Below, piece by piece: positions 2,968-44,939 of a stretch of 45,021 nt of DNA; positions within the stretch are counted from its first letter, which is position 1, and each line of letters opens with the position of its first letter. Where the stretch lies: positions 1 to 45,021 of the IMG/VR virus record IMGVR_UViG_3300028029_000003, one strand, 5' to 3'. This stretch comes from a virus. The notes under the pieces are model-generated. The model saw only the letters and a list, made by a program, of their open reading frames with translations, was not told where the DNA came from and ran no database searches. A program made the translations under genes and the position numbers.

Positions 2968-3115
2968 CGATAGTCTCCTTCTCAAACTGCTTAAGCAGGT
3001 CTAATATGATACCGCTGAACTTAATGTGCCTCTGAGTACAATACTCTTTGACTCTTTCGACTAATTGCTCATCTTGTGGGCGTTTCGTCTGGGTAGAAAA
3101 CGAGTGAACTGCCAT
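2954..3115 (-). CDS. Small helical protein (53 aa), first gene of the packaging operon. It is absent from the ORF track because it is under 60 aa.
   Basis: Hand translation gives MAVHSFSTQTKRPQDEQLVERVKEYCTQRHIKFSGIILDLLKQFEKETIDGEV*. AAGGAG lies ~10 nt upstream of ATG 3115. The 3' end overlaps the terS-like start by 14 nt. Two amphipathic helices are compatible with a small DNA-binding fold, but this is speculative. Confidence 0.4.
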   Translation of the reverse strand: MAVHSFSTQTKRPQDEQLVERVKEYCTQRHIKFSGIILDLLKQFEKETIDGEV

Positions 3116-3160
3116 GATTTGCGGGCTCCTTTTTTAATAAGAATATTATATTATAAAAAG

Positions 3161-3189
3161 TGTACAAATGATACAAAAAGTTGTATAAT
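3161..3189 (+). promoter_or_regulatory. Sigma70-like promoter candidate for the plus-strand virion block.
   Basis: TGTACA (3161..3166), a 17-nt spacer, then TATAAT (3184..3189). It sits in a very AT-rich 240-bp divergent intergenic region, ~40 nt upstream of the scaffold ATG. Confidence 0.4.
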
Positions 3190-3228
3190 ATTTTCGCACT
3201 TACGCATAATTTAATAGGAATAATACAC

Positions 3229-3936
3229 ATGGGCACTCCAAACGATACGTTTGCAGCTGAAGTAGAAAGCGTGGTAGACCAACTAGCGCCTAATGCAGAC
3301 GGCAAACTAGAATTACCAGAGGGCGTAGAAGCGTCTAGTCAAGCATTATACGCAGCAAAGATTGAAATAAGAAGACGAGATACATATGCGTCTTATGGCA
3401 AAGAAAAGAATGCTAATAAGGCGTTACAAGCAGAGAACGCAGCTTTGGCAGCACAGTGGGAAGAAGACGCTTCTAGCATGATGACTGCTAAAGAGCGAAC
3501 TGAGCTTTCTACACTAAAAGCGAGTGACCCAGACGCCTGGTTAGCAAAAGTAGAAGAGTTGAAAGGCACTAACGCTAACAAGTTCAAAGAAAAACGTGCG
3601 GCTGTCAGTAAGAAAGCTAATGAGATGACTGAAGTAGAGCTTCGTACTTCTCAAATAGAGCTGTACAATGAAGAGAACCCGGAGTACGTAATAAACGATG
3701 ATGTCATAGCAGATGACATCCCACCTAAGTATACTAAACAGTTGTCTAGCGGTAAAATTACATTCGAGCAGTTCATTAGCAAAGCTAGTAAGTTCTTAAA
3801 AGCTAACAAGGTCTTAGACAAAGGTGCTTCTAAAGAAGACGAGCCTAATATGTCTAATTCTGGCGGTTCGAGTAGTCCTTCTAAGCAAGCTATAGTCGCC
3901 AACGCTAGCGAAACATACAAAAAGACTGTTTTTTAG
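3229..3936 (+). CDS. Putative scaffolding protein.
   Basis: Start re-set to ATG 3229, with AGGA 9 nt upstream. The track start at 3181 is a TTG inside the promoter. The product is highly charged, Ala/Glu/Lys-rich and predicted helical, and lies immediately upstream of the major capsid gene. Confidence 0.55.
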   Translation: MGTPNDTFAAEVESVVDQLAPNADGKLELPEGVEASSQALYAAKIEIRRRDTYASYGKEKNANKALQAENAALAAQWEEDASSMMTAKERTELSTLKASDPDAWLAKVEELKGTNANKFKEKRAAVSKKANEMTEVELRTSQIELYNEENPEYVINDDVIADDIPPKYTKQLSSGKITFEQFISKASKFLKANKVLDKGASKEDEPNMSNSGGSSSPSKQAIVANASETYKKTVF

Positions 3937-4046: not shown

Positions 4047-4078
4047 CACTGCACTCGTTTATTATTTTGAGTGCAGTG
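4047..4078 (+). promoter_or_regulatory. Perfect 10-bp stem / 12-nt loop hairpin in the scaffold-capsid intergenic leader.
   Basis: CACTGCACTC (4047..4056) pairs with GAGTGCAGTG (4069..4078). It overlaps a 23-nt direct repeat (4049..4071 versus 4076..4098, 20/23) whose second copy ends in the capsid RBS GAGG. Confidence 0.5.
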
Positions 4079-4107
4079 CACTCGTTAACTATTTTGAGGT
4101 GAAGATT

Positions 4108-5280
4108 ATGGCTACTGGTGTAGTTTCAATTACTTCTGACCTGAAACGCAAAAGTTGGATGCGTGAAGGTCTTATTCAAGCTTCTTCTCAGTCTTTCTGG
4201 ACGCCCTTTACAGGCAATACCAAAGACGCAATCGTATATCAAGAGAACAATGAAAACTCAGGTGCTGGGCATACTGTTGTTTTTGACTACGATGGCAACT
4301 TATCTGGTAAAGCCGTTAAAGGTAAAGATACAGCGTACGGTAAGGGTGAACAAAAGAAGAAATTCTCGGACAAGATTACTGTTGAGCGTTATCGCTTAGT
4401 AGTTGACAACGGCGACAAGTTCGACGGCGTTGACATTGGTGATTTGTCTATCAACGAGCACTCAAACTCTCGTTCAGGTCTAGGCGATTTATTCGTGCGT
4501 AACAAAGACCAGTCGTTGTTTGATGCAGCACAGGGTAACCTACTGACTAATAACGATGGTCTTCAAGCACCGTCTCATATTATCGATTTAGGAACTACCT
4601 TCAACTTCAATACTCTTGTTGACATTGAAAAAATCTTGAGAACTTCTCAAGGCTTTAGTACTGGTGCAATGAGACGTCCTTTAGACCCTTATAAAGCTTC
4701 TCGCGGAAATAACGGTATTCACGGCGACTTGCCTGTTTGGGTATTTGTTATTGACTCGTCTATGGCTAATATCTTGCGTAAAGATGTTGCTGGCTATCAG
4801 ACAATCATGAAGGACGCTGACATTCGTGGTCAGAACAACCGTAACATCCAAGGTGTCTTTGGTACTCTTGGTCGTTTGATGATTGTTGAAGCGGGTCATT
4901 TCTTCGGAGAGACTTCTGGGACAACATCTGGGTGGGAGCTTGATGCTTCTGAAATTGAAATTAGTGGTATGCGACAGTACGATGGTGCGGACCCTGCGAG
5001 TGCTCTATGGACTGGCCAAGCTGGTTTTGACGACACGTCTTCTGACCTTCATTCACGTGGTTTGTTATTAGGGCGTAGTGCATTGCAACTAGCGATGGGC
5101 AAGCAACCTGATTACAAATACCAGCCTTCTCAAGATTTTGGTATCAAATCAGAATCGGCAGTTGAGTATTGGATGGAAGTTCGTAAGTGCCACTTGAAAG
5201 CGGAAAATGCTAAATACAAGAAAGCTAAAGTTGCTGACTTGGATTACGGTGTTATCGCTGTTGACTTGGGAGTAGCGTAA
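4108..5280 (+). CDS. Major capsid protein (N4-gp56 / DUF4043-like).
   Basis: Start re-set to ATG 4108, 6-7 nt after GAGGTG. The N-terminus KRKSWMREGLIQASSQSFWTPFTG...GAGHTVVFDYDGNLSGKAVKGKDTAYGKGEQKKKFSDKITVERYRLVV has the pattern I recall for N4-gp56-family capsid proteins. The gene follows the scaffold gene. Confidence 0.8.
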   Translation: MATGVVSITSDLKRKSWMREGLIQASSQSFWTPFTGNTKDAIVYQENNENSGAGHTVVFDYDGNLSGKAVKGKDTAYGKGEQKKKFSDKITVERYRLVVDNGDKFDGVDIGDLSINEHSNSRSGLGDLFVRNKDQSLFDAAQGNLLTNNDGLQAPSHIIDLGTTFNFNTLVDIEKILRTSQGFSTGAMRRPLDPYKASRGNNGIHGDLPVWVFVIDSSMANILRKDVAGYQTIMKDADIRGQNNRNIQGVFGTLGRLMIVEAGHFFGETSGTTSGWELDASEIEISGMRQYDGADPASALWTGQAGFDDTSSDLHSRGLLLGRSALQLAMGKQPDYKYQPSQDFGIKSESAVEYWMEVRKCHLKAENAKYKKAKVADLDYGVIAVDLGVA

Positions 5281-23159: not shown

Positions 23160-25174
23160 CTGTAAGGAATATAAAGAAGCAACTGATTGGAATGCAGGAC
23201 ATCCTTCAAGGCGTAGGTAACGTAAGTCAATCCAGAAACAGTCAGGCTTATAACATCAACAGAGTTGACGTACCTTTCGCTGTTAGCACAGTCGAAGAGA
23301 TGTCAGCACTAGACATAACGCTATACACGCGAGCCAGAGTGTACTCAACAACCACACTGTTCAGAGATTACATCTTTGACTCTGCAGCTGCATCTGGTGT
23401 AGCACCTGACTCAGGTACAGGTTACTGGGTTGTACTGACTGATTCTGGCTCAAGCTCAACAAATAGGTTTAGTACCTTAGCTAACGCTATGATAGGCTTA
23501 CTTCCTACTGGCGACACTGTGACTCTTGCTATAGGTGATGTCATAACAGTTACTGCTCGAGTTGCAGGTAATCAAGGTGGCGCTGACTGGATTGCTACTG
23601 ATGCAACCACAGTCACGGCTAATGGTACAGACGTTATAGGGGTGTCTGCTACTATTTCGCTAGTGCTGTATATTGAACCTATAATGACTACCAAGCAGTT
23701 TGGTGCACAACATGACAATTCAACAGACGACTCAGCAGCTTTACTTCAGTCACTAGCTAGTTGTAAAGCTAATAAATTCATACTGCAGTTCTCAACAGGC
23801 ATGAGCTTAATATCTTCTGGGACTACTCTTGCTGTGTCAGGAAACATGCACCTGAAGTTCTTAGCTGGTTCTTATGTTAAAATGATAGTCAACGCTTTGT
23901 CTGTGTACACTATGATGGCAATAACAGGTACAAGTAACACAGTGGAAGACTTAAGATTGATAGGAGACAAGGTTGGACACACTGGGGCTGCATCTGATAC
24001 ATGTGTTGGTCTGTCTATTGATGGCAGTTGCATACTAACTAACCCAGATATTACTTCCTGTTGGGGTGACAACGTGGTTATACCTTTCTCAGGAAGAGTC
24101 AACATCTCAAACTTACGCTCTTACTACTGTGGTGGAGACGCCCTTGTTATAGGAGATGTAGAAGACTTCCTTAGTCTGTCTGGCACAACTAGCTTAGAAC
24201 TGTCCGATAAACATGGACTAGCAATAGAGCCTACTGCCTCGATAGAAGGACTAAACAACTTAAGTATCAACAGTCTTGTTACTAGAGAATGTGGAGAAAG
24301 TGGAGTTAATCTGGACTTATCTGCTTGGCCAAATACTGGATTTTCAACTACTGCAATGATAGCTATCGGTTCTCACAAAGACTATGGTTCTAAGACTTCA
24401 TTTAACATTGCGCCTATGCTGTTAGGTCTTACTGAGACCACCGCAGGAGTTGTTAATGTTGTAACTGCTGTATATGAACAGTCAGGACATCAAGGATTGT
24501 ACCTAGACAACTACTCTTCTCACAACTCTCCTGCTATTAGATTTGGTTCTCTTAATGTTATCAACGCTAACAGTTTTAATTCAACTAATGAACTTGAACA
24601 AACTGCTATAGGCATGGCACAGAGCACTGCAGCAAATACAGTTGGTAATCTTACAGTAGACCATTTAAGAGTAGAAGATAACAGAGGAACTCAGAGGTGC
24701 AGGACAGCTTTTTACGCTGATGATGGCACATTCCCTCAAGTAGGGTTCAAGAATGTAGACGTAACTCTAGACTATTACTCTCTTACTGACACAACACCAG
24801 TAGAGATAGACACAGACATTGAAGGTATAACTATTAGAGATGTTAACAAACTGCTAGATGGCTCAGCCTTCTCTTCTATAGGCAGTTCTGAGTCAGTAGT
24901 ATCTGTTGTTAAAAGTGGAGCTTCTGCACTAACCATAAGCACAGCATTTGGTAACAACTTTAATGGCAACATGGATATTGAGTTTTCAGTAGACGATGAC
25001 GCTGGTTCTATTAGGTTAACACCAGGAGTAGCAGAAACGTACTTACCTTTATCTTCTGTAGCAGGTAAGTATATCGAATCAACAGAAGAGGGTGCATACT
25101 TAAAGCTAAGAAGAACAGATTTAACGACTTGGACTATAGTAGCACAAATTGGAACTTGGACAGTGGAGCCGTAA
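23156..25174 (+). CDS. Tailspike with a right-handed beta-helix (pectate-lyase-like) domain, a probable polysaccharide depolymerase.
   Basis: 672 aa. KQFGAQHDNSTDDSAALLQSLAS matches the fGA.gDG.tDDt.A.q motif that opens pectate-lyase-3-type spikes. The N-terminal ~63 aa are shared with the 9047 product. Confidence 0.75.
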   Translation: MTVRNIKKQLIGMQDILQGVGNVSQSRNSQAYNINRVDVPFAVSTVEEMSALDITLYTRARVYSTTTLFRDYIFDSAAASGVAPDSGTGYWVVLTDSGSSSTNRFSTLANAMIGLLPTGDTVTLAIGDVITVTARVAGNQGGADWIATDATTVTANGTDVIGVSATISLVLYIEPIMTTKQFGAQHDNSTDDSAALLQSLASCKANKFILQFSTGMSLISSGTTLAVSGNMHLKFLAGSYVKMIVNALSVYTMMAITGTSNTVEDLRLIGDKVGHTGAASDTCVGLSIDGSCILTNPDITSCWGDNVVIPFSGRVNISNLRSYYCGGDALVIGDVEDFLSLSGTTSLELSDKHGLAIEPTASIEGLNNLSINSLVTRECGESGVNLDLSAWPNTGFSTTAMIAIGSHKDYGSKTSFNIAPMLLGLTETTAGVVNVVTAVYEQSGHQGLYLDNYSSHNSPAIRFGSLNVINANSFNSTNELEQTAIGMAQSTAANTVGNLTVDHLRVEDNRGTQRCRTAFYADDGTFPQVGFKNVDVTLDYYSLTDTTPVEIDTDIEGITIRDVNKLLDGSAFSSIGSSESVVSVVKSGASALTISTAFGNNFNGNMDIEFSVDDDAGSIRLTPGVAETYLPLSSVAGKYIESTEEGAYLKLRRTDLTTWTIVAQIGTWTVEP

Positions 25175-25175
25175 T

Positions 25176-25700
25176 ATGAAATGGTCAGAATTAGGAAAAT
25201 CAATAGCAGACTTTGCACCTGCTTTAGGCAGTGTACTCGGAGGTCCTCTTGGCGGAGGGCTAGGTGGTATTATAGCTAATGTGTTTGGCACGGAAGAAGA
25301 GCCTGGTGCGATACTGGCAGCTATAAAAGCTGACCCAGCAGCTGCAGTTAAGCTTCAGCAGATTCAATCAGATGAGCGAGTTAAGATACAAGAAGCTCAA
25401 GCTATACAGACTGCTTCGATGCTAGAAACTATTAACAAGACTATGAGAGAAGAGTCTAAATCAGAACACTGGATGCAGTGGGCTTGGAGACCTTTATGGG
25501 GTATCATAAGTGCAACGGCATTCTTTATAGTGTGTGGGCTAGTGTGCTATTTAGCTTATCTAGCTGTTATTGGTGGCAAACCAGAAGCCATGACAATGAT
25601 ACCAGGACTTATAACGTCCATGACTACATTGTTTGCGATTCCAGGTGCCATACTAGGTGTTGCTTCGTGGCACCGTGGAAAACAAAAGAGAGGTGTATAA
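25176..25700 (+). CDS. Holin (3-TM, GTA-release-type family).
   Basis: Start re-set to ATG 25176, with GGAG 7 nt upstream. ADPAAAVKLQQIQ...ESKSEHWMQWAWRPLWG is followed by hydrophobic helices, matching the DP...E..s..f..WRP..G signature I recall for the 3-TM GTA holin family. It is the last large gene of the late block. Confidence 0.7.
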   Translation: MKWSELGKSIADFAPALGSVLGGPLGGGLGGIIANVFGTEEEPGAILAAIKADPAAAVKLQQIQSDERVKIQEAQAIQTASMLETINKTMREESKSEHWMQWAWRPLWGIISATAFFIVCGLVCYLAYLAVIGGKPEAMTMIPGLITSMTTLFAIPGAILGVASWHRGKQKRGV

Positions 25701-25783
25701 TGGGTGGTCACAGACATCAGGCTAACAAAAAAGTGAAACACTTGAAAAAGAAGAAGCGGTCATCAACTGAATCTTCTTCTTAA
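25700..25783 (+). CDS. Possible 27-aa basic peptide coupled to the holin gene.
   Basis: The sequence is MGGHRHQANKKVKHLKKKKRSSTESSS*. There is a TAATG overlap with the holin stop, and GAGAGG lies 7 nt upstream. It is very short and its function is unknown. Confidence 0.3.
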   Translation: MGGHRHQANKKVKHLKKKKRSSTESSS

Positions 25784-25981
25784 GTAGCTCAGTCTCTGGG
25801 AGCGTTTTGCTCCTAGAACCTCTTTAGAGCACATACCATCTGTGTATGTAGAATAACCATACAACTGACACTCTTTGGTCCTTCTTTGGTTAGCTTGACC
25901 TTTGTAATACAAATCAATGATAGGCACAACAAGCAATGTAACTATCACAGTGTAAAAAGCAACTTCCAGCAGCCTAGACAC
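25763..25981 (-). CDS. Small membrane protein (72 aa), last gene of the minus block and a lysis-accessory candidate.
   Basis: GTG 25981 lies 6 nt after GAGG and overlaps the upstream stop. It has an N-terminal TM segment VAFYTVIVTLLVVPII, then KECQLYGYSTYTDGMC. The track start at 26011 overlaps the upstream gene by 38 nt. Confidence 0.4.
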   Translation of the reverse strand: MSRLLEVAFYTVIVTLLVVPIIDLYYKGQANQRRTKECQLYGYSTYTDGMCSKEVLGAKRSQRLSYLRRRFS

Positions 25982-26411
25982 TGATAACCTCAAGCTCAAC
26001 GCCATAATCATTTTTGATTATATTGTAAACTATACTTGCGTATATCTTCTTATAGACTGCAGTGGAGTGACTTATGCTTGCTCCTATACTAGCAGATTCA
26101 CCAACAAGTATACAACCTTCTGTGTCTCTTGGATAATTACCTATGTGTAGTAGGATGTACTTATAGTTTGGCACGTCTAGCACTTCTATCATGCCTTTGT
26201 GGTCAGCGAATTTAACTCCATACCTTTGATGGAAGCCACCAACTTTTCTGAGGCCTAGTTTGTAAGTGCCTTCAGGTATCCTAGTCTCACCAGGTATCTT
26301 GTGTGCATGCCAAGGGTCTTCTATAGTGTGGCACAGAATTTTGCCGTTGTGCATTAGCAAACCTTTAGTGTGCTTGCTGTCTGCAAAGTATCTTCTTAGT
26401 TCAAGTTTCAT
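25974..26411 (-). CDS. DUF5675-like protein with a YkuD-type H...GC motif, a putative cell-wall enzyme.
   Basis: 145 aa. TKGLLMHNGKILCHTIED...ETRIPEGTYKL...ILLHIGNYPRDTEGCILVGES matches the pattern I recall for DUF5675 and the His/Gly-Cys catalytic signature of L,D-transpeptidase-fold enzymes. Confidence 0.6.
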   Translation of the reverse strand: MKLELRRYFADSKHTKGLLMHNGKILCHTIEDPWHAHKIPGETRIPEGTYKLGLRKVGGFHQRYGVKFADHKGMIEVLDVPNYKYILLHIGNYPRDTEGCILVGESASIGASISHSTAVYKKIYASIVYNIIKNDYGVELEVISV

Positions 26412-26899
26412 AGTTCTACACTCCAGTCTTCAGCTAGCATGTCTGTCTGACTGCATAGCCAAGGTACAATCTGTCCATCAGCTGTCTTCATGTCAACGTG
26501 AGCATGGTAGTTAATCTCAGTGCCCTCAGGATATATGCCTAATAGAGGTACCCTGTTAACTTTAAATGTGGACCCACTAACTAAGAATAAGAACATACTT
26601 CTTCCATTCCAACCAGCTCGGTGAACCTTGTGACCTCTTTTAAGCATCAACAAAGCATCACCAAACGTCAACTGCCCATTAGGATTATAAGCTTCGTTGA
26701 ACACATCCTCAGGTGACCATGAAATGTAGCCATCGTGCTTAGGGTGATTAGACTTACCTCCGTCACAGTGCTCAACAAAGTAGCCTTCGTCTTCACCGTT
26801 CTCATCATCAGGCAGTTTCCATCCTCTGTACTCAATATACTCAGCTCTATTCATTACTTGAGCTACGATTAGCTTTGAACCTACGTGTAATTTATTCAT
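26408..26899 (-). CDS. Two-domain protein with a C-terminal DUF2829 (Tad2-like) domain.
   Basis: The C-terminal half LTFGDALLMLKRGHKVHRAGWNGRSMFLFL...DGQIVPWLCSQTDMLAEDWSVEL carries the DUF2829 hallmarks. The N-terminal ~75 aa (YRGWKLPDDENGEDEGYFVEH...GYISWSPEDVFNEAY) form a separate module. Confidence 0.75.
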   Translation of the reverse strand: MNKLHVGSKLIVAQVMNRAEYIEYRGWKLPDDENGEDEGYFVEHCDGGKSNHPKHDGYISWSPEDVFNEAYNPNGQLTFGDALLMLKRGHKVHRAGWNGRSMFLFLVSGSTFKVNRVPLLGIYPEGTEINYHAHVDMKTADGQIVPWLCSQTDMLAEDWSVEL

Positions 26900-27164
26900 C
26901 TTTTAGTTTCTCCATTACTTCTTCTAGTGACCAAGCTACAAAGGCAATACCACCGCGCTTTGCAACTTCCAATATGTTCCAGCTTTGCAACTTGCTTGCT
27001 CTACCAGAACCAAACTTCATTTCAATACCTACAAACCTACCCTTAGGTGAACAAGCTACAATGTCCATTATGCCTGCTCTGTTGCACTCAATAGTCTTGA
27101 TAGCCCAGTAGTTATTAACTTTCAACCAAGTCATTACTTTGGCTTGTTCTTTTTGTTCACTCAC
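26892..27164 (-). CDS. VRR-NUC family nuclease.
   Basis: GIMDIVACSPKGRFVGIEMKFGSGRASKLQSW is a PD-(D/E)xK core (D...E.K) followed by the Q..W element typical of VRR-NUC. Confidence 0.75.
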   Translation of the reverse strand: MSEQKEQAKVMTWLKVNNYWAIKTIECNRAGIMDIVACSPKGRFVGIEMKFGSGRASKLQSWNILEVAKRGGIAFVAWSLEEVMEKLKDE

Positions 27165-27993
27165 TTAGTCTTACTCCTTTGTAAGTAGGGAATCTAGGTT
27201 TACCATACTTAGTTAAGTTTTGGTACTTGTAGGTTATCTGCTTACCAATGTAGTAGTCTCGACGTTGCCATATTTCATCTCGTTGTGCAGTGTTGAAACC
27301 TGAACCTACTTTGAACTGCCCGCACTCATTACGCAAGACTAGAGCTCCTAGAGTGCCCATAGGAACCATATTTTCATTTTTGTTAGTAGACGTGTCTTCA
27401 TTCCGAAGAAGCTCCTCAAAGCCAATAACGGTGGCCTCAGCATCTTTGAAGACTTTCAGCTTGAGCATCCAACCTTGTTTCATAGTGCTACGGCCTTCTT
27501 TATACGGACCTTCTGGGTCTCTAACGATTGCTCCTTCATATCCTTGTTCTAAACAAGCGCCTAAATAAATAGTCATCTGAGTCGAGTCTGTAATCGTCAC
27601 TTGAGGTACCAGTCTCACTATCGGGCTACACACAACTCTAACTATCGTTTCAGCTTCTTGCGCTCTTTTACGGAAACTTACGTTCTTTAACGTATGACAG
27701 TCAAAGACGTTGTAGGAGAACTCGTGGCTCCTCTCATGTGTCACACTAGAGAACACAGACTGCACGTCTTCGAAATCTCCGTCTATCATAAGCTCACCGT
27801 CCAGTCCATGTAAGTTCAACTCTTTGAACACCCTTTGAACGTACGCATTAGCTATGCGCTTTAGCGTTCTGCTATACGCTACTCCAGCTATTGCTACACA
27901 CCTATAACCATCTATCTTAGGTGACGCAAGCACAGGGTATGCTATGTCGCTTATCTTTGGTATCTTGCTGCACGCTTTCATTGTTTCTTTCAT
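27157..27993 (-). CDS. ATP-dependent DNA ligase.
   Basis: The adenylation motif I is SPKIDGYRC (KxDG). GLDGELM (III), YEGAIVRDP (IV) and WMLKLKVF (V) are also present. Confidence 0.85.
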   Translation of the reverse strand: MKETMKACSKIPKISDIAYPVLASPKIDGYRCVAIAGVAYSRTLKRIANAYVQRVFKELNLHGLDGELMIDGDFEDVQSVFSSVTHERSHEFSYNVFDCHTLKNVSFRKRAQEAETIVRVVCSPIVRLVPQVTITDSTQMTIYLGACLEQGYEGAIVRDPEGPYKEGRSTMKQGWMLKLKVFKDAEATVIGFEELLRNEDTSTNKNENMVPMGTLGALVLRNECGQFKVGSGFNTAQRDEIWQRRDYYIGKQITYKYQNLTKYGKPRFPTYKGVRLSE

Positions 27994-28097
27994 ACGTTAC
28001 TCTCAGGTGGGTAAAGTCGTTCTATCATTTGCTTGCTTGTTTCATTCTCAACCTTTTGACACTTAGCTGTTGACTTGGACATTTCCAGCCTAGCCAT
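27990..28097 (-). CDS. 35-aa ORF bridging the helicase and ligase genes (absent from the track).
   Basis: Hand translation gives MARLEMSKSTAKCQKVENETSKQMIERLYPPESNV*. Its ATG overlaps the helicase stop (TAATG) and its TGA overlaps the ligase ATG (ATGA), so it exactly fills the 100-nt gap. Confidence 0.4.
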   Translation of the reverse strand: MARLEMSKSTAKCQKVENETSKQMIERLYPPESNV

Positions 28098-29368
28098 TAT
28101 ATCTCCTCCTGCTCAAACACTGAGTCTACAAAGTTTCTCTTGTTCACCGATACAGTCTTGTAGACCTGTGCGCTAATTGCTTTCTTAACTAACAAATAAT
28201 GGATAGCTATAGGAAGCTCTCTGTTCTTATTACACTGTCTGGCACGCCGTTGAGTGTGTCTAGCAGTACTATAGTCTTGGCTGTATATAACAAGCTCTTT
28301 GTAACCACTCAAGTCAACTCCTTCAGCATAACTAGTAGCTTGTAGCAGTTTGGCATACTTGAAGCACTCTGTTAGCTTAGTCAGTTCTGCTTTGTAGTTG
28401 TACATTATAACTAACGCAGGAGTGTCGCCAAACTCTTTGAGCACATAATCTATCTTCTCTTTGTTAGCCAAGACCAGGTAGTTAGCTTTAATCTTGCCGT
28501 TCTCCACAGTGTCTATCTTAGCGACGCCGCCTTCTAGCATGTGAAGACTGACTCTAAGCTTCATAGTAGTATCACATACTAATGGTTCATGGAACTCGTC
28601 TATGAACACTAGCTTCTCCTTAATAAGCTCATTGTATAACTTTCTAGTGCTGCCGCACAAAGTTATGTAGTGAACTTTATCAACTGGGTCGTGAGCAAAA
28701 TCTAGTTCTTTCCTGGTCTTAGTTATAAACAAGTGCTCGCAAGTACCTATGACTAAATCCTGGTTACATCTATCGTACTGCTGAACTTTCCTACCTCTGA
28801 CTTCAATAGTGTATGGGCGCCCAAACTGTCTAAACCAGTGATAGAAGTTTCCATAATTCTTGAATGGAGACCAAGAACTGACACTTAACTGATGATACAA
28901 GAGTTGAGGACCTTGAGCATAAGGAGTGGCGGACAAGTAAATTATTGGCTTATCTATGCATAGTCTGCCTACAGCGTCATATATATTCTTATTAGGCAGC
29001 CCTTTCTTTCTCTGTAACTTTAGTTGCTCGCAGTTAGAACCTATCTTAGGGTAAGAGCTAATGTAGTTATGACTCTCATCCAGTACAATCAAGTCGTACT
29101 TCGCTGACTTTTTCCACGCCATATGGTAGTTTGTAGCAGAGAAATATTTTTTAGTGTCATACTTAGCCAATAAGATTATCCAGTCTTTAAGAGCTTTCTT
29201 CTTAGTCAGTATCAGTATGTTTTTAACGTTTATCTTTTCTGCTATCAGCAACGCGGTCAGAGACTTACCAGTGCGTTCCTCCATGGCTAAGTAGACCATC
29301 ATGTGCTCTTTTATTATCGCTGCGCCTTCTTCACTTATTGTTACTTGATGCTTCCAAGGTGTTATCAT
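28097..29368 (-). CDS. SNF2/DEAD-like superfamily-2 helicase.
   Basis: Motif I is MEERTGKSLTAL, motif II LIVLDESHNY, motif III YLSATPY and motif VI HTQRRARQ. Confidence 0.8.
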   Translation of the reverse strand: MITPWKHQVTISEEGAAIIKEHMMVYLAMEERTGKSLTALLIAEKINVKNILILTKKKALKDWIILLAKYDTKKYFSATNYHMAWKKSAKYDLIVLDESHNYISSYPKIGSNCEQLKLQRKKGLPNKNIYDAVGRLCIDKPIIYLSATPYAQGPQLLYHQLSVSSWSPFKNYGNFYHWFRQFGRPYTIEVRGRKVQQYDRCNQDLVIGTCEHLFITKTRKELDFAHDPVDKVHYITLCGSTRKLYNELIKEKLVFIDEFHEPLVCDTTMKLRVSLHMLEGGVAKIDTVENGKIKANYLVLANKEKIDYVLKEFGDTPALVIMYNYKAELTKLTECFKYAKLLQATSYAEGVDLSGYKELVIYSQDYSTARHTQRRARQCNKNRELPIAIHYLLVKKAISAQVYKTVSVNKRNFVDSVFEQEEI

Positions 29369-29550
29369 AACTGCTCCTTTGCTAATTCTTCAAGCCGTAT
29401 AACAAACTCTTGTTGGTCTGACGATAACATCTTGGCTTTCTCAGGTTTTCCAATGTTGACTGCGTCCTGAGAACTCCAGTGTATATCTCCAGTCTGTATA
29501 TAGTTGCGCCACATCAATATGCTCCGGTACTTTATCTCTTTGTCATTCAC
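29365..29550 (-). CDS. Hypothetical protein (61 aa, GTG start).
   Basis: GTGA overlap with the upstream small ORF, and its stop overlaps the helicase ATG. Confidence 0.5.
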   Translation of the reverse strand: MNDKEIKYRSILMWRNYIQTGDIHWSSQDAVNIGKPEKAKMLSSDQQEFVIRLEELAKEQL

Positions 29551-29726
29551 TCTGTTATCTCCACGCCATAAATTTTATAGAACAGTTCACGATAGTCTGT
29601 GCCCATAATAGTGCCCTTTAGCCAGTAGTTAACAAGTATAGGAGCACAGCCCAAGTCCTGGGCCATGCGGTACTTAGTTAGTTTACCACCAGCTAGTATA
29701 GTACTAACTGCCTCCCTAGTGTTCAA
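29547..29726 (-). CDS. 59-aa HTH protein (Cro/YdaS-like), absent from the track.
   Basis: Hand translation from TTG 29726 (TTGA overlap with the nuclease stop) gives (M)NTREAVSTILAGGKLTKYRMAQDLGCAPILVNYWLKGTIMGTDYRELFYKIYGVEITE*. The A..LG....V..W.kG pattern is typical of Cro/YdaS-type HTH proteins. It fills an otherwise empty 170-nt gap. Confidence 0.45.
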   Translation of the reverse strand: MNTREAVSTILAGGKLTKYRMAQDLGCAPILVNYWLKGTIMGTDYRELFYKIYGVEITE

Positions 29727-30553
29727 AGCTTTATCTTCTGCACGGGAGGAGCAACGTCAATCTTGCCTTTAGAGAAAGGGCACTCTTTATAGAAGTCACA
29801 CCACTGGTCACCACAGAACGTGTAACCTGGATTGCCTCTAAGAATAGTCTCTATAGGAGCTACGTCCTTTATAACTAAGTCTAAGGTGTCCAGGATATGG
29901 TTCACTAACTTCTTAGCATGAGGTACATTAGCTTCCATACCAATAATAGAACCTTCAGGCACCTTCTTAAGCACTACACTTTGAATCAAGTTGTGCTTGA
30001 CATCAATACCATTAGCTTGAGCTAAGAACTTATAGATTGACTGCTGAGTTGAGTGTTTCTGAACAACAGGCTTGCGCTTAGAGGTTTTCAAATCAGCTAT
30101 AGTACTGTCAGTAATGTAATCAACAGTTCCACCAATAGAAGTAACTAATGCATGGTCTAAAGGAACTTCAAAGAATTCTTCTACAGCATTAGGTATCTTA
30201 GCGAACGGCACAATGTCCTCTATGAATGCTTCTGTACCTTGAAGAATAACTGCAGCAGATGTTCCGGCAGTTTCTTCTTTGCTGTACTTCATGTCCTTCT
30301 TAGCTTCTTCTGACCAAGCCTCCATCGCTGCATCAGTCATCATACTTAGGTTAGGTTCCTTCTTCTTGCTAGCTATAGTTTCAGTCCAAAAAGCTTCAGC
30401 AGCAGCATGAACAGCAGTTCCAATCGCAGCTCGGTTATTAGGTCTAGATTGCCGACCTTCCAAGAACGTAAGTCCCCATTGGTAAGAACAACCAAAGAAG
30501 CTGTCTATCGTAGAAGGTCTTAGTCGTATGTCAGTATTGTTAATTTTAATCAT
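29723..30553 (-). CDS. PD-(D/E)xK exonuclease (Cas4/RecB-like, Cys-cluster type).
   Basis: GGTVDYITDSTIADLKTSKR is a D...DLK core. An N-terminal Cys (FFGCSYQW) plus the C-terminal CGDQWCDFYKEC resemble Cas4/AddB-type Fe-S ligands. Confidence 0.75.
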   Translation of the reverse strand: MIKINNTDIRLRPSTIDSFFGCSYQWGLTFLEGRQSRPNNRAAIGTAVHAAAEAFWTETIASKKKEPNLSMMTDAAMEAWSEEAKKDMKYSKEETAGTSAAVILQGTEAFIEDIVPFAKIPNAVEEFFEVPLDHALVTSIGGTVDYITDSTIADLKTSKRKPVVQKHSTQQSIYKFLAQANGIDVKHNLIQSVVLKKVPEGSIIGMEANVPHAKKLVNHILDTLDLVIKDVAPIETILRGNPGYTFCGDQWCDFYKECPFSKGKIDVAPPVQKIKL

Positions 30554-37320: not shown

Positions 37321-37563
37321 TCATAGCATGCTCCTTAACTCAGCGATTCTTTTATCTCTTGCTTCATACAGCTCATTGTATCTTTTCTTTTTATAAGCCT
37401 TTGTGAACCTGGTTTTAGAGATTCTGTTGCACTCACTAGCGCAATCTTCTTTAGCTTCACATATAGCAGCTACTACTCTCCATTCGCTTACTCTATGTAC
37501 TACACGCGCACTAGGCGAGGCCCCTGCAATTTGCATTGCCGACTTAATAGCTACTTCAGTCAT
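37321..37563 (-). CDS. Hypothetical protein (80 aa).
   Basis: ATGA-coupled to the upstream gene. The C-terminus is basic. Confidence 0.55.
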   Translation of the reverse strand: MTEVAIKSAMQIAGASPSARVVHRVSEWRVVAAICEAKEDCASECNRISKTRFTKAYKKKRYNELYEARDKRIAELRSML

Positions 37564-38006
37564 TGTCTACTCCACTGGTCAGCTATACCAATAATGTGTC
37601 CAGGGTCATACTTGTTAAGCTTAATACTTATACGTCTGGCTTCAGCATATGTCTTGCTGTTCTTAGGAGCAACATTAACTATGGTCTGAAGTCTGTATGT
37701 CAGCGTTAACTTCTTAGTGTGCTTCCAAGTTACATCACTGAAGTCAGGCCAGAAGACGCTATATGCATGTGAGAATCCATCATACCTGTTAAACAGATAG
37801 TGAGCTGGACTACCATACAGCATGTTGAAAACTACATCAAGTGGGTAGCCAATGACGAAACCTAGCATGAAGATTCCTTTCTGAGCTAAGTTGTATGACT
37901 TGAATTTGTCTATGCGTGGCATTAGCCTCTTGAACAGCCAAAATGCTGTGTGGTATGCAAAGAAGCCAAAGGCCAAGTACATTGCCATTATCTTAAGTAT
38001 TATCAT
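37560..38006 (-). CDS. Hypothetical membrane protein (148 aa).
   Basis: Two or three hydrophobic segments are present (MAMYLAFGFFAYHTAFWLF and IFMLGFVIGYPLDVVF). Confidence 0.6.
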   Translation of the reverse strand: MIILKIMAMYLAFGFFAYHTAFWLFKRLMPRIDKFKSYNLAQKGIFMLGFVIGYPLDVVFNMLYGSPAHYLFNRYDGFSHAYSVFWPDFSDVTWKHTKKLTLTYRLQTIVNVAPKNSKTYAEARRISIKLNKYDPGHIIGIADQWSRQ

Positions 38007-38173
38007 TTTTGTTCTCCAAAGTTCTTTTCATCACAGTTTACTCCTAATTCAAATGCATCATAGACTAATTTTCTTACATAGAGTACTGTAGCAGCTGAGC
38101 CTTCATCATTGATTGTAGCCAGTAACTTCTCAGTAAAATCTTTGCTAAGCTTTAGTTTCTTTATCACTTTCAT
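38003..38173 (-). CDS. 56-aa ORF (absent from the track).
   Basis: Hand translation gives MKVIKKLKLSKDFTEKLLATINDEGSAATVLYVRKLVYDAFELGVNCDEKNFGEQK*. AGGA lies 7 nt upstream. Its TGA overlaps the next ATG (ATGA). Confidence 0.45.
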   Translation of the reverse strand: MKVIKKLKLSKDFTEKLLATINDEGSAATVLYVRKLVYDAFELGVNCDEKNFGEQK

Positions 38174-38202
38174 TTTATTTCCTTTAGTTAGGTTAATAAT
38201 TC

Positions 38203-38340
38203 TTATAGACTCGGCTTGTTCAATTTAAGATGATAGTTATATGCACCGAACCTAGTTAGCTTAGATTTTATTTGTACTACTTCAGCTAAAATTTCTAGGT
38301 TTAAAGTTACATCAGGGAACTGCTCATTTAAATCTTTCAT
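38203..38340 (-). pseudogene. Truncated, motif-less duplicate of the 5' end of the MazG-like gene at 38728..39027.
   Basis: The 45-codon ORF MKDLNEQFPDVTLNLEILAEVVQIKSKLTRFGAYNYHLKLNKPSL* parallels MNDLDKQFPDVFLNLEILAEECAEVIKIKSKIIRFGVRHYH. It lacks the ECA codons of the EExxE motif and stops early. The DNA at 38223..38340 is ~80-85% identical by eye to 38901..39027. Confidence 0.5.
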
Positions 38341-38726
38341 TTCTTTATCCCACAAGGCAACTCTATTTTTCGGTTGGTTCTGTCTGGGATGTACAGATAT
38401 TCTTCAAAAATCTCTCTGTACGTGTATGATCCGCTAGGTAACGATACAGTCCGATCGCTTATTGCATGTACAGTTGAATACCAACCAATAGCTTTGCACT
38501 TAACAGTAAACGGCGGCAAAGGACATGTGTCGAGTGACCAGTATTTAGGTTCAGTTTCTTTTATGCATTTATACCCACCGTAAGCCGAATTAGCTACTGT
38601 AACGGTCTCAAAAAGGGCTACGTCTAAGCTGTTAATAACTAAGAATTTTCTAATTTCTAATTTATCAAGTTCATCACCAACAAGATAATCCTTACCCTTC
38701 ACCAAATTTTCATTTTTTACGTTCAT
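38337..38726 (-). CDS. Hypothetical protein (129 aa) lying between the two MazG-like 5' repeats.
   Basis: A clean ORF, with no family recognised. Confidence 0.6.
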   Translation of the reverse strand: MNVKNENLVKGKDYLVGDELDKLEIRKFLVINSLDVALFETVTVANSAYGGYKCIKETEPKYWSLDTCPLPPFTVKCKAIGWYSTVHAISDRTVSLPSGSYTYREIFEEYLYIPDRTNRKIELPCGIKK

Positions 38727-38727
38727 T

Positions 38728-39027
38728 TTATTTCTCTACTTCATTCGGTGTGTACCATTGTGGCATTTTGTTCAATTTAACTTGTACAGCCAAATCCAAT
38801 TCAGCTTGTTTCATAACTCCATTGGCTTTTAATATTTCAATAAGGGCTAATATGTCACCTAGCTCTTGAACTAAGCAATTTATATTCGCCTGTTGATCCT
38901 TAGGATGATAGTGGCGCACACCAAACCTAATTATCTTAGATTTTATTTTGATTACTTCTGCACATTCCTCAGCTAAAATTTCTAGGTTTAAAAATACATC
39001 CGGGAACTGCTTATCTAAATCGTTCAT
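38728..39027 (-). CDS. Small MazG-like nucleotide pyrophosphohydrolase (99 aa).
   Basis: LAEECAEV (EExxE) and QELGDILA (E..D) are at the spacing typical of ~100-aa MazG-like phage proteins. GGAG lies 8 nt upstream, after a 69-nt intergenic gap. Confidence 0.65.
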   Translation of the reverse strand: MNDLDKQFPDVFLNLEILAEECAEVIKIKSKIIRFGVRHYHPKDQQANINCLVQELGDILALIEILKANGVMKQAELDLAVQVKLNKMPQWYTPNEVEK

Positions 39028-39096
39028 AACTTTACTCCATATTTAGCTTTGTAACATGTTTTTGCATTTTCACTTGATGAGTGACATATATTGCGC

Positions 39097-39324
39097 TCAA
39101 ACCGCTTGGTCTTTCAGAAAATCTGGAAGTTCGTCAATTAAATTTAAGGTTAAATCAATGTATGCGAGTTGTTTTTTGAGTTCTTGTACTTGATTTTTTA
39201 AACCCTCAACTTCGCATTCAAAACAGTGAGCTTCAGGGCTTATATCATGACCACATTTAACATCAAAAAAGGTTAAATCCTGAAACTCTTTCTGATGAAG
39301 AAATTCTAAATTAGAGTCACTCAT
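39097..39324 (-). CDS. Hypothetical protein (75 aa).
   Basis: Start re-set to ATG 39324 (MSDSNLEF...). The upstream part of the track ORF overlaps a better-supported small ORF. It contains C..H....H.C.EC followed by a coiled-coil-like tail. Confidence 0.5.
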   Translation of the reverse strand: MSDSNLEFLHQKEFQDLTFFDVKCGHDISPEAHCFECEVEGLKNQVQELKKQLAYIDLTLNLIDELPDFLKDQAV

Positions 39325-39487
39325 CCCCACATCTCCAACAATTATCACTATTATTAGGCGCTCCGCATACACGGCAATCGTAGTATTCTCTAATTTCTTT
39401 GTCCATTAAAGCTCCCACAAAAAGTATTGCACAAAGTATGACAATCACTATAACTGCAATACCCACGGTTATTAGCTCAAGCGTCAT
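39317..39487 (-). CDS. 56-aa membrane-anchored zinc-ribbon-like protein (absent from the track).
   Basis: Hand translation gives MTLELITVGIAVIVIVILCAILFVGALMDKEIREYYDCRVCGAPNNSDNCWRCGDE*. A strong AAGGAG lies 7 nt upstream. It has one TM helix followed by CxxC-N9-CxxC. Confidence 0.5.
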   Translation of the reverse strand: MTLELITVGIAVIVIVILCAILFVGALMDKEIREYYDCRVCGAPNNSDNCWRCGDE

Positions 39488-39716
39488 GACTAATCTCCTT
39501 CTTGTGCTCTATAACTCTAGCTGTCATCTCTTCAGCCGCGGCTGTTGCAACTGTAAGTATACCATCAGCGCACACCTCAAAAATATGGTCAACCTGCTCT
39601 TTGTTTAGCTTTAAGGTGACTTTACCAAGCTCATTAGTAAACTCTATAGAGCCAACTAACTTGCCTTTATTTTTACCCCAACTAGGTCTACTTATTTCTA
39701 GCTTATCAAGTCTCAT
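39477..39716 (-). CDS. Hypothetical protein (79 aa).
   Basis: A clean ORF within the chain of overlapping early genes. Confidence 0.55.
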   Translation of the reverse strand: MRLDKLEISRPSWGKNKGKLVGSIEFTNELGKVTLKLNKEQVDHIFEVCADGILTVATAAAEEMTARVIEHKKEISHDA

Positions 39717-39843
39717 CTTCGTTCTCCATTATGTTACGTAAGTTGTCTATCATTTTAGTCAGCTTTACTTCTTGGTTGTTGTTGATAGCTCTCATTATAT
39801 CATCATCAAGTAGGTATATTAATTTCGCATTTTCTCTAGTCAT
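39706..39843 (-). CDS. 45-aa acidic ORF (absent from the track).
   Basis: Hand translation gives MTRENAKLIYLLDDDIMRAINNNQEVKLTKMIDNLRNIMENEDET*. GGAG lies 8-9 nt upstream. It overlaps both neighbouring genes by 8 and 11 nt. Confidence 0.4.
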   Translation of the reverse strand: MTRENAKLIYLLDDDIMRAINNNQEVKLTKMIDNLRNIMENEDET

Positions 39844-40096
39844 ATTCATTTCTCCATTTATTTATCATTAAGGTAGGATTTTCATCTTCACATCCTCCAC
39901 ATTCATCGTCTTCACAAATCGGGCAGTACTGTATTTCACACTCAGGAGAGCATCGTCCGTCTTCATCCATGTCTTCTTCACTTTTAAAAATATCACAGCT
40001 ACCATTTGTGCACTGAATGTGCTGAGACTCATAGTAAGGACTCCTTGGGTCTTTATCATAGTTCCTGATATCATCAGGGTAGTTACTTGCTGGCAT
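39836..40096 (-). CDS. Cys-rich, highly acidic small protein (86 aa).
   Basis: Eight Cys lie in CTNGSC...GRCSPECEIQYCPICEDDECGGCEDE, and there are many Asp/Glu residues. Confidence 0.55.
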   Translation of the reverse strand: MPASNYPDDIRNYDKDPRSPYYESQHIQCTNGSCDIFKSEEDMDEDGRCSPECEIQYCPICEDDECGGCEDENPTLMINKWRNEYD

Positions 40097-43409: not shown

Positions 43410-43886
43410 CTAGCTATTAGCTAAACATTCATCAAGAGTTTCAAATCCTTGATAGTCACCTTCCAATGGAGTGATGACCTGGCGAAGAGTATTAAGCTCT
43501 TCTAAAGCTGATGGTACATCTTCAGCAAGTAAGTCGCCGCTTGCAACAGCTTCTAACAAGCTTTCTTTACCTTGCTTGTATGCTCGTTGTTGCTTAGTCC
43601 ATTTAGAGACACCTTCTTTACACATACTGTTTAAGCCAGTAGCACTGGATGCTTTCTTACCGAACTCAACAACACTCGGGTCCATCCAAGTTTTGTGGTA
43701 GAAGCAGTGAATCGCAGTGACGTTGCCATCTTCATCACGGTGATGAGCAGTTGCTTTACCACCTCCACCACCAGTCTTAGCACTCGCAAGAGCGATAGCT
43801 TGTACGAGGATGTTGCAGACTTGTTCATCTGGATTTGCTTCCAAAAGGGAGATGATTGGTTGGTATGCTTTTTTAATCGTGGCCAT
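43410..43886 (-). CDS. Early protein, paralogue A (158 aa, unknown family).
   Basis: It shares the core CxYHKxW...(Y/F)GKKAS..TGLN.MCK.GVS.WTKQQR...K..LL..VASG with the 44487..44939 product. It has its own promoter-like elements and terminator. Confidence 0.7.
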   Translation of the reverse strand: MATIKKAYQPIISLLEANPDEQVCNILVQAIALASAKTGGGGGKATAHHRDEDGNVTAIHCFYHKTWMDPSVVEFGKKASSATGLNSMCKEGVSKWTKQQRAYKQGKESLLEAVASGDLLAEDVPSALEELNTLRQVITPLEGDYQGFETLDECLANS

Positions 43887-43930
43887 GATATAAATTTCCT
43901 GTTTTTAGTGTTGTCTCAAATGAGGATTTT

Positions 43931-43959
43931 ATTATAATCTATTTTTCTGCGAATGTATA
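43931..43959 (-). promoter_or_regulatory. Sigma70-like promoter candidate for paralogue A.
   Basis: On the minus strand, TATACA (43954..43959) is followed by a 17-nt spacer and TATAAT (43931..43936). AGGA lies 10 nt before ATG 43886. The -10 sits within GATTTTATTATAAT, a one-mismatch variant of the 18-nt motif. Confidence 0.4.
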
Positions 43960-44160
43960 CTTTTATTTTGTCTGGCATCTTTCATATGAAGTCTACCGTG
44001 TTGTTGACAAACGTATCTTCAGGGCGAGCTAGTTTATTGTTATTCTCTTTTAAGTGAAGTGCCATAGCTAATGATTTTATTAAAATGTACAATTTATTTT
44101 GTGCATCGATTATTTATCGTCAAAATTGACATATAAAACTCGTTTAGACGTACGAAATAG

Positions 44161-44430
44161 GTCCGTAGTTGAATTATATGTAGTTATATATATAATTATA
44201 TAAGTATCGATTATTATTTGATGACGGATTTGGTTGATGTGATCTTGTAGATTATTCGTTTAGTCATGCAGTTCATATCAATATAGATAATACTAAGTCT
44301 TTCATGACCTGTTTTATATGTATGTTTAATCCTTACTATGCTGGTTACTGATAGTACTGAACCCTTTTTCAGTATATTATTATATATATATATTATATAT
44401 ATTAATATATATTGTATTGATAAATGAATG
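44161..44430. repeat. Extremely AT-rich tract with (TA)n-type low-complexity runs.
   Basis: TTATATATATAATTATATAAGTAT lies at ~44184-44207. 44371..44430 is almost pure A/T (ATATTATTATATATATATATTATATATATTAATATATATTGTATTGATAAATGAATG). The hairpin TACTGAA-CCCTTT-TTCAGTA lies at 44355..44374. Confidence 0.85.
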
Positions 44431-44442
44431 AGTACTAGCAAT

Positions 44443-44475
44443 AGAAAAAGGGAGACAACTGTTAAGTCACCTCCC
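44443..44475 (-). terminator. Rho-independent terminator after early paralogue B.
   Basis: The minus-strand RNA reads GGGAGGUGAC-UUAACA-GUUGUCUCCC (10 bp including 3 G-U pairs) followed by UUUUUCUAU, 11 nt after the stop at 44487. Confidence 0.7.
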
Positions 44476-44486
44476 TCACTCTTTAG

Positions 44487-44939
44487 TTATGCTTCGACTT
44501 CTTCAGTCTCAACAACAGTTACTTCATAAGGCTTGATTTGTTTAGCTTGCTCATCAATCAATGCAATGCTATTCGCTAGCTCACTTGCTTCGACTTCACC
44601 ACTAGCAACATCATCAAGTAACTTAGCTTTTGCTAACTTCATTACTCTTTGTTGTTTAGTCCAGTTTGAAACACCTTGCTTACACATTGTATTCAAACCA
44701 GTACTTGTACTAGCTTTCTTGCCATAGTCAATCTCAGATATATTTTCCCATTCTTTATGATAATAGCAATACACATGAGTGACAATGCCTTCATCATCTT
44801 TCTTGAAAGTCTTAGCCATAACTTTAGATTGCATTAGTTCAACAAACTGGTCCATTAGCTTAGTAGTAAGCTTCTTACCAGCATTGTCTTGTAATAAGTT
44901 ATGTACATCTTGATATTGAGTTTTGATAGTAGTTGACAT
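44487..44939 (-). CDS. Early protein, paralogue B (150 aa, unknown family).
   Basis: It is a paralogue of the 43410..43886 product, with an acidic C-terminus. Its promoter/operator region lies across the circular junction (window nt 46-90). Confidence 0.7.
   Translation of the reverse strand: MSTTIKTQYQDVHNLLQDNAGKKLTTKLMDQFVELMQSKVMAKTFKKDDEGIVTHVYCYYHKEWENISEIDYGKKASTSTGLNTMCKQGVSNWTKQQRVMKLAKAKLLDDVASGEVEASELANSIALIDEQAKQIKPYEVTVVETEEVEA

Follow-up and report, generated by a model that had tools for sequence, protein, structure and literature searches.

The locus examined here raises two linked questions: whether a short phage gene encodes a sponge for an immune signal, and what the additional domain at the N-terminus of its product contributes. 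The gene lies at positions 26408-26899 of virus record IMGVR_UViG_3300028029_000003, and the window is the whole 45,021-nucleotide stretch of that record. A sequence-only reading had described the product as a two-domain DUF2829 (Tad2-like) protein and a candidate sponge for Thoeris signalling nucleotides. The open reading frame (ORF) is real: it begins with ATG on the minus strand, encodes 163 amino acids (aa), and agrees with the sequence quoted for it. We consider it probable (roughly 0.7) that the Tad2 half tetramerises and sequesters glycocyclic ADP-ribose (gcADPR) made by ThsB, with ThsA staying off, and that the N-terminal domain, here called X, is a self-associating accessory unit dispensable for binding. 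The Tad2 assignment, which Pfam itself gives, and the architecture, which has a verified representative, were already known. New to the searchable literature is X as a recurrent module across sponge families; one preprint mentions a divergent version, that of the phage protein gp68, in passing.

The C-terminal half (aa 76-161 overall) is identified unambiguously, by sequence and by structure prediction, as a Tad2/DUF2829 domain. Pfam family PF11195, 'Thoeris anti-defense 2-like' (Tad2-like), matches aa 78-161 with a score of 81.5 bits, where the cut-off is 25 (E = 6.3e-23), and the match spans positions 2-72 of the 73 in the profile. In a phmmer search of all PDB sequences, the significant matches were Tad2 proteins only, with E-values of 1e-16 to 1e-12 (ModTad2 9EIB, 1.1e-16; SPO1 Gp34.65 8SME/8WJE, 6e-16; HgmTad2/AcrIIA7 8KBI, 8e-16; pdAcrIIA7 9KZR, 8e-14, core only, chain residues 49-148; and SptTad2 8WJD, 1.5e-12). 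Both hallmark elements on which the sequence-only reading had relied are present at the C-terminus (GWNG at aa 96-99 and PWLCSQTDMLAEDW at aa 146-159).

Structure prediction led to the same family. The AlphaFold2 model of the full-length protein, built on 41 homologues, has a mean predicted local distance difference test (pLDDT) score of 91.4 and consists of two folded units. A Foldseek comparison of this model with the PDB identified 24 Tad2 chains at E<=1e-3 (probability 1.0, target-normalised template modelling score 0.59-0.75), and nothing besides Tad2 chains below E=1. The modelled domain contains helices at residues 79-87 and 151-155 and strands at 92-94, 103-107, 110-113, 128-131, 134-138 and 159-161, and it shows the N-terminal helix, antiparallel β-sheet and short loop helices of the Tad2 fold. 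The proposed family membership and the structural match to Tad2 are both borne out.

The ligand pocket is largely that of characterised gcADPR binders. In SPO1 Tad2, W25 and W73 make van der Waals contacts to 1''-3' gcADPR, N26 and D79 make polar contacts, T78, I63 and T65 lie on the adenine side, and D67, H71 and S76 coordinate water (Yirmiya et al.). In the phmmer alignment, SPO1 residues W25, W73, N26, D79, T78, I63, T65, D67, H71 and S76 correspond to W97, W147, N98, D153, T152, M137, T139, D141, V145 and S150, respectively. Eight of these ten ligand- or water-coordinating residues are identical. The remaining two (I63 to M137 and H71 to V145) equal M76 and V84 of HgmTad2, which pack on adenine, and binding of gcADPR is lost in the HgmTad2 mutants W21A/N22A and S90A/T92A/D93A. 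Within 41 family members, W97, N98, G99, M137, T139, V145, W147, S150, Q151 and D153 are invariant; the columns of T152 (38/41), L148 (39/41) and D141 (30/41) are less strict. The pocket motif is SQTD, as in the gcADPR binders SPO1 Tad2 and HgmTad2, whereas the His-ADPR binder ModTad2 has SVSD.

The two best-characterised comparisons differ from our protein in instructive ways. SPO1 Tad2 (Gp34.65; PDB 8SME, 8SMF, 8SMG, 8WJE) is 43% identical and shares the fold and the short insertion as well as the pocket, but it has no N-terminal domain. HgmTad2/AcrIIA7 (PDB 8KBI-8KBM, 8WJC) has a gcADPR pocket identical at M76, V84, W87, L88, S90, T92 and D93, but its second, cyclic-dinucleotide pocket needs a 41-aa β2-β5 insertion together with R31, S47, F70 and N85. 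Our protein has an insertion of ~26 aa, like SPO1 Tad2, and V107 in place of R31; the position of N85 is deleted, and K46/S47 have no counterpart. To judge from the alignment, a cyclic-dinucleotide pocket of the HgmTad2 type is not expected.

Relatives of both halves have been assayed. Table S12 of Yirmiya et al. lists four IMG homologues as 'Experimentally verified: Yes' against Thoeris. Among them is the 92-aa Tad2 of Nitrosospira sp. Nsp1, which shares 60 of 85 residues (71%) with our Tad2 domain and has the same short β2-β5 insertion (…FLFLVPGSxFxVxRPPLLGIYPxGTEI…) and VPWLCSQTDMLAEDW pocket motif, but is a single domain without X. The 159-aa homologue from an E. coli AIEC_UM149 prophage, verified in the same table, shares the X+Tad2 architecture and has an X domain 58% identical to ours; in its Tad2 domain, which is 31% identical, SIGD replaces SQTD. 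Phage N4 gp49 also has X followed by Tad2, with X 44% identical (31/71). The Tad2 domains of UM149 and N4 gp49 are only 31-38% identical to the one here, and the genomic sites differ (after the lysis cassette in P22-like phages, beside Acb4 and the virion RNA polymerase in N4).

We observed that the protein is a mosaic: X most resembles that of UM149, whereas the nearest match of the Tad2 domain is the single-domain Nitrosospira protein. Because the two halves have different closest verified relatives, the comparison gives direct evidence for domain shuffling within the family.

The two-domain form is widespread. PHROG 872 spans aa 3-161 (E=1e-55), and two other PHROGs match aa 1-77 only. A homologue search returned more than 2,100 proteins, of which the best 120 are all ~162 aa long with 63-86% identity. 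Homologues occur in 402 phage records, 90 of them with a full-length match, including N4 gp49, P22-like coliphages (Kapi1, IME10, Louie, Huey), Pseudomonas phiAH14a and Vibrio crassostreae phages. In N4, the gene that immediately precedes the one for the virion RNA polymerase is gp49 (2974-3456), and it directly follows gp48 (2603-2974), which encodes an Acb4 sponge (PF13876, E=9e-35). Although PF13876 is named 'N4 Gp49/Sf6 gene 66', it matches gp48 and not gp49 in the RefSeq N4 numbering. The gp48-gp49 region has been described as an 'anti-signalling hotspot' of N4-like phages (bioRxiv 10.64898/2026.06.04.730250).

The X+Tad2 architecture is thus not new but common, given that PHROG 872, N4 gp49 and the verified UM149 homologue all have it, and both this Tad2 subtype and the two-domain architecture have tested representatives. 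For these representatives, no paper discussing the extra domain was found in the literature. A sponge-diversity preprint reports 18 tested Tad2 homologues; those in the part of it considered here are 69-108 aa long, and none carries the SWSP motif of X. Because these homologues are short and without SWSP, that part of the preprint leaves the two-domain form uncovered.

X itself has no recognisable family. Searches of X against Pfam, NCBIfam and PADLOC gave no match (Pfam at E<=10 yielded only noise, namely NAM and the MAT-alpha HMG box), and Foldseek found no fold relative in the PDB, the best hit being SPO1 Tad2 at E=7.7. In BFVD, X matched uncharacterised phage proteins only, of 65-270 aa. 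The earlier description of a second domain of ~75 aa with no known role therefore holds, since the model has two folded units and X lacks a Pfam or NCBIfam family and a PDB fold; the fusion itself is not unusual, in view of its distribution. The extra N-terminal domain of Phocaeicola dorei AcrIIA7 (pdAcrIIA7, 9KZR) is compatible with a tetramer, but that 'head' consists of two long helices, whereas X is mixed α/β.

Two other identities for X were considered and rejected. The first was a degenerate internal duplicate of Tad2, suggested by shared motifs (RGW/GWNG-like and SWSP…Y/SQTD…W-like); hhalign gave a probability of 0.1%, and the Foldseek E-value was that given above. The second was Lockin, Acb5 or TadIV-1. 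X matches none of these: Lockin is a different, β-rich domain that is sometimes fused to X, and TadIV-1 is helical.

A word-indexed search with X alone gave only two proteins, and an exhaustive HMMER search was used instead. Of 1.84 billion cluster representatives searched with phmmer, 1,230 matched X at E<=1e-3, and 620 did so at E<=1e-10. Their lengths range from 84 to 354 aa, and X usually lies at the N-terminus but sometimes at the C-terminus. The counts of partners, conservation and identity given below refer to the best 150 of the 1,230 representatives. About 30 X positions are at least 85% conserved, including R18, Y21, R25, W27, E33, E43, Y44, D46, N51, Y58, S60, W61 and P63. The most conserved motif, GYISWSP, contains the invariant W61 and P63; conservation is 99% at Y58 and S60 and 94% at S62. 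The net charge of X is -7 here and -3.7 on average.

Only four partner families were found with Pfam: Tad2 (51/150), PF21825 (Sequestin, a 3'cADPR sponge; 39/150), PF13876 (Acb4, a CBASS sponge; 13/150), and PF24729 (the Acb2/Tad1 hairpin; 4/150). Examples of the architectures are Acb4+X, X+Acb4+Sequestin, X+Sequestin+Tad2, Tad2+X and X+Acb2/Tad1. Local searches add X+Lockin and further X+Acb2/Tad1-like proteins. X+Lockin and many X+Sequestin sequences are present in the supplementary tables of Tal et al. Five established sponge families are thus among the partners of X (Tad2, Sequestin, Acb4, Acb2/Tad1 and Lockin), a count that lumps Acb2 with Tad1 because one Pfam hairpin model covers both and does not tell them apart.

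X domains linked to Tad2 have a mean identity of 0.57 to one another, as do those linked to Sequestin, and the mean between the two sets is 0.56. For 55 of the 150, the nearest-neighbour X belongs to the same partner class; the random expectation is 39.6 +/- 6. Because X identity does not co-vary with the partner, X is shuffled as an autonomous unit.

X also occurs alone, in 12 of the 150 representatives as well as in P0121 and in BFVD entries of 65-92 aa. One stand-alone X gene adjoins a gene for a 4,450-aa protein, which, by analogy with the N4 locus, we take to be a putative virion RNA polymerase. In local searches, 46 of the 150, including the 12 with X alone, have no recognisable partner domain. 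The rest of those 46 carry extensions of 40-190 aa, mostly singletons with a few small clusters (e.g., P0245, 268 aa; P0226, 266 aa; P0151, 230 aa; P0176/P0222; and P0177/P0179). By the logic of being 'fused to a sponge', these unmatched extensions are candidate new anti-defence domains.

One divergent relative of X has been studied in the laboratory. RyR Tad is gp68 of Pectobacterium phage CB1. In its crystal structure the N-terminal dimerisation domain is strand-swapped between two protomers; this domain alone (gp68_N, aa 1-86) is inactive against type I Thoeris, and the RyR-like C-terminal domain binds gcADPR (bioRxiv 10.64898/2026.06.04.730250). The X profile from the 150 representatives matches gp68 aa 5-68 with 24.1 bits (E=1.3e-9 as a single comparison); the highest score among 1,000 shuffles was 9.2 bits. 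On the basis of this profile match, X is homologous to the RyR Tad N-domain and is the main branch of the family that contains it. The two have the motifs KxxxAxPMT, EGYLV and SWSPxxVF in common. However, the RyR Tad N-domain is shorter and divergent, is without the RGW and DGGKxN motifs that are near-invariant in the main X family, and has as its partner a RyR Repeat12-like helical sponge rather than Tad2. Owing to these differences, the inactivity of gp68_N may not generalise to X. Residues 3-6 of our protein form a strand in the full-length monomer model and coil in the model of isolated X, which fits a mobile first strand but proves nothing.

In the mechanism we favour, the Tad2 domain would form a homotetramer, as do the characterised proteins SPO1, Hgm and Mod Tad2 and pdAcrIIA7, all of which are tetramers. 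Pockets at the protomer interfaces, lined by W97, N98, W147, S150, T152 and D153 together with M137, T139, V145 and L148, would capture the Thoeris signal that TIR proteins make, most probably 1''-3' gcADPR (3'cADPR) and 1''-2' gcADPR. The ThsA effector would never be switched on, and the infected cell would not shut down before the phage finishes. X would be a self-associating accessory unit, most likely dimerising by strand swapping as its relative does in the RyR Tad crystal, and such units would pair on the outside of the tetramer. By comparison with single-domain relatives, which at 71% identity work without it, X is probably not needed for signal binding. The ORF with its coupling to both neighbours, the family, the predicted fold, the conserved pocket, the accessory status of the gene and the spread and partners of X are shown by the analysis. 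We infer the tetramer, which ligand it binds, that it inhibits Thoeris and what X does, and the anti-defence role that the sequence-only reading had drawn from family membership keeps that same status.

Several points weigh against this mechanism. The dimer-clamp idea for X rests on one divergent homologue, gp68_N, and the existence of stand-alone X ORFs is odd for a pure oligomerisation unit. Tad2 homologues vary in ligand (3'cADPR, His-ADPR, N7-cADPR, cUMP/cCMP and cyclic dinucleotides), and given this variation within the family, high conservation of the pocket is no proof of the ligand. ModTad2 has His-ADPR and cUMP as ligands and does not bind gcADPR, and the systems blocked are Thoeris I, II and IV for Tad2_71 and Pycsar for Tad2_70.

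A tentative alternative for X, which would leave the statement on the Tad2 half intact, is that it binds or inhibits a second immune signal or a defence protein, so that one polypeptide would block two systems. The analogy is to Acb4-Tad2 and Acb4-Sequestin. These fusions, like Tad2-Sequestin, are small phage proteins made of shuffled sponge modules and inhibit multiple systems, but a ligand has been demonstrated for both of their modules, whereas X is without one. The company that X keeps is suggestive, as its partners include five established sponge families, plus RyR Tad for the divergent form, and the same 'fused to a sponge' logic previously led to the discovery of Sequestin. Its occurrence alone (in one case by a putative virion RNA polymerase gene) and the conservation of some 30 positions, many of them aromatic or polar, also fit an activity of its own, and the near-equal identity within and between partner classes points to a function independent of the partner. 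Against this, gp68_N had no activity against type I Thoeris, X is acidic whereas known sponge pockets are usually positively charged, and X has no fold relative in the PDB and no identified ligand or pocket. It is conceivable, though we would not favour it, that X is itself an unrecognised anti-defence module that sponges up or inhibits some immune signal or protein not yet assayed; it would have escaped the published screen for sponge-fused domains because it has no Pfam model. If so, the ~30% of X proteins with an unmatched other half (46/150, counting the 12 with X alone) would mark further undescribed sponge families.

A less likely alternative concerns the Tad2 half, which might be a Tad2-fold sponge for a ligand other than gcADPR, such as His-ADPR (type II Thoeris), N7-cADPR (type IV), cUMP/cCMP (Pycsar) or cyclic dinucleotides (CBASS). 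Collectively, Tad2 homologues inhibit Thoeris I, II and IV, CBASS and Pycsar. The best PDB E-value is to the His-ADPR binder ModTad2, if only marginally, and the C-terminal motif VPWLCSQTDMLAEDW is nearly that of Tad2_71, with its block of three Thoeris types. However, the SQTD motif is that of the SPO1 and HgmTad2 gcADPR binders and not the SVSD of ModTad2, the identity to a verified type I inhibitor is high, and the HgmTad2 dinucleotide pocket is not conserved. To some extent, such ligands could also be bound in addition to gcADPR and not in its place. Because Tad2 homologues differ in ligand, we regard type I Thoeris as the most likely but not certain target. The proposal of a sponge for the type I signal, to which the identity to Nsp1 Tad2 lends weight, stands with that qualification.

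An AcrIIA7-like anti-CRISPR function, in which tracrRNA would be held by the tetramer core so that the Cas9 ribonucleoprotein could not assemble, is very improbable: some database records label homologues 'anti-CRISPR protein' and head-less AcrIIA7 forms bind tracrRNA in vitro, but the AcrIIA7 form with an N-terminal extension was inactive in the same study, another laboratory failed to reproduce any anti-Cas9 activity of HgmTad2, the N-terminal domain here is acidic and the Tad2 domain is not basic (net charge -1), and the relatives of the window phage infect Gammaproteobacteria (such as Vibrio, Edwardsiella, Pseudoalteromonas and Dickeya), of which SpyCas9-type II-A systems are not known to be typical.

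The preferred reading, a Tad2 sponge with an accessory X domain, is placed in context by the genome. The window is a phage genome of ~45 kb with genes for a large terminase, major head protein, family A DNA polymerase, Dda-like helicase and primase-polymerase. Its primase-polymerase shares ~50% identity with the enzymes of Vibrio phage VPMS1, Edwardsiella phage KF-1, Pseudoalteromonas phage PH1 and Dickeya phage Amaethon, whose replication blocks are syntenic with that of the window. The window (1-45021) looks like a complete or near-complete podophage-like genome that belongs in one group with VPMS1, KF-1 (Kafunavirus), PH1 and Amaethon. A megablast of positions 24000-30000 against phage genomes gave no match, and the relatives surfaced only at the protein level. 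Because nothing in the phage collection matches at the nucleotide level, the phage represents a new lineage. Its host is probably an aquatic gammaproteobacterium.

The four relatives keep the helicase-ligase-VRR-NUC block, but no tblastn match to the Tad2-like gene, the DUF5675 gene or the holin-like genes was found in VPMS1, KF-1, PH1 or Amaethon. At the position of the lysis cluster they have ordinary endolysins or glycosyl hydrolases. The Tad2-like gene is a mobile accessory gene, given its absence from these four syntenic phages and the occurrence of its architecture at differing sites in other phages; its accessory look had been remarked on from the sequence alone. The closest homologue with genomic context (73% identity) lies at 4077-4565 of an 18.9-kb JGI metagenome contig, directly upstream of a 291-aa gene and a coat gene. 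The contig is from an unrelated phage with a P22-type coat protein, which shows that the whole two-domain gene moves horizontally between phage lineages.

The Tad2-like gene belongs to a translationally coupled leftward run in the order helicase, DNA ligase, VRR-NUC-like endonuclease, Tad2-like gene, DUF5675 and a short protein with a weak holin match (Table 1). We base the coupling on the ribosome-binding site and on the overlaps with both neighbours: its start and the upstream gene's stop have 8 nt in common (ATGAATAA), and its stop shares 4 nt (ATGA) with the ATG of the downstream gene. Scans for promoters and terminators across 25000-28200 gave results at chance level.

The upstream gene has a weak Pfam VRR-NUC match (E=0.003) and a match to PHROG 93 'endonuclease' (7e-18), and its syntenic counterparts in VPMS1, KF-1, PH1 and Amaethon carry the VRR-NUC annotation. 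Compared by sequence with the PDB, the DUF5675 neighbour had no significant relative (sole listed match, E=0.022). It lies with the 82-aa and 183-aa genes at the convergence of two transcription arms, and the three are a possible lysis cluster. Of the neighbours named in the sequence-only reading, the VRR-NUC nuclease is upheld by PHROG 93 and synteny, and the lysis genes are plausible but weakly supported, by one weak holin match and a match to a 3TM holin family on the other strand. Elsewhere in the window, eight small early ORFs (80-158 aa; 37321-40096 and 43410-44939, minus strand) had no significant Pfam match, and no other known sponge domain was detected among them with Pfam. They are candidates for other counter-defence functions.

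Table 1. Positions of the Tad2-like gene, its domains and motifs, and adjacent genes in the window.
Feature	Position	Strand	Description
Tad2-like coding sequence, complete	26408..26899	(-)	ATG start, 163 aa; N-terminal X and C-terminal Tad2 domain; from ORF list
X domain	26675..26899	(-)	aa 1-75; small acidic α/β module; AlphaFold2 pLDDT 93 in isolation
GYISWSP motif	26711..26731	(-)	aa 57-63; most conserved X motif
Tad2 / DUF2829 domain	26417..26668	(-)	aa 78-161; Pfam, phmmer, Foldseek
GWNG motif	26603..26614	(-)	aa 96-99; W97 and N98 correspond to SPO1 W25 and N26 (gcADPR contacts); invariant in 41 family members
WLCSQTD motif	26441..26461	(-)	aa 147-153; W147, S150, T152, D153 correspond to SPO1 W73, S76, T78, D79 and HgmTad2 W87, S90, T92, D93
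Ribosome-binding site GGAG	26910..26913	(-)	10 nt 5' of the Tad2-like ATG; read from sequence
VRR-NUC-like endonuclease gene	26892..27164	(-)	upstream neighbour; ORF list, Pfam, PHROG 93
DUF5675 gene	25974..26411	(-)	downstream neighbour; DUF5675 match, E=1e-28
82-aa protein gene	25763-26011	(-)	weak holin match, E=0.0045
183-aa protein gene	25149-25700	(+)	matches GTA_holin_3TM family (3TM holin)

The Tad2 half is routine, being one more member of a family of several thousand, although it suggests that this uncultured relative of VPMS1 and KF-1 meets TIR-signalling defences in its host. The main value of the locus lies in X, a 75-aa domain represented in more than 1,200 sequence clusters but without a family model, a fold relative or a known function. 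Phages join X to nearly all the types of sponge known: five established sponge families are among its partners, a divergent version is on RyR Tad, and X is also found alone in N4-like anti-signalling hotspots. It may clamp oligomers together, serve as a second sponge, or shield the protein from off-target binding. Knowing which would account for a design rule that recurs among phage counter-defence proteins, and X could serve as a search handle for new sponge families.

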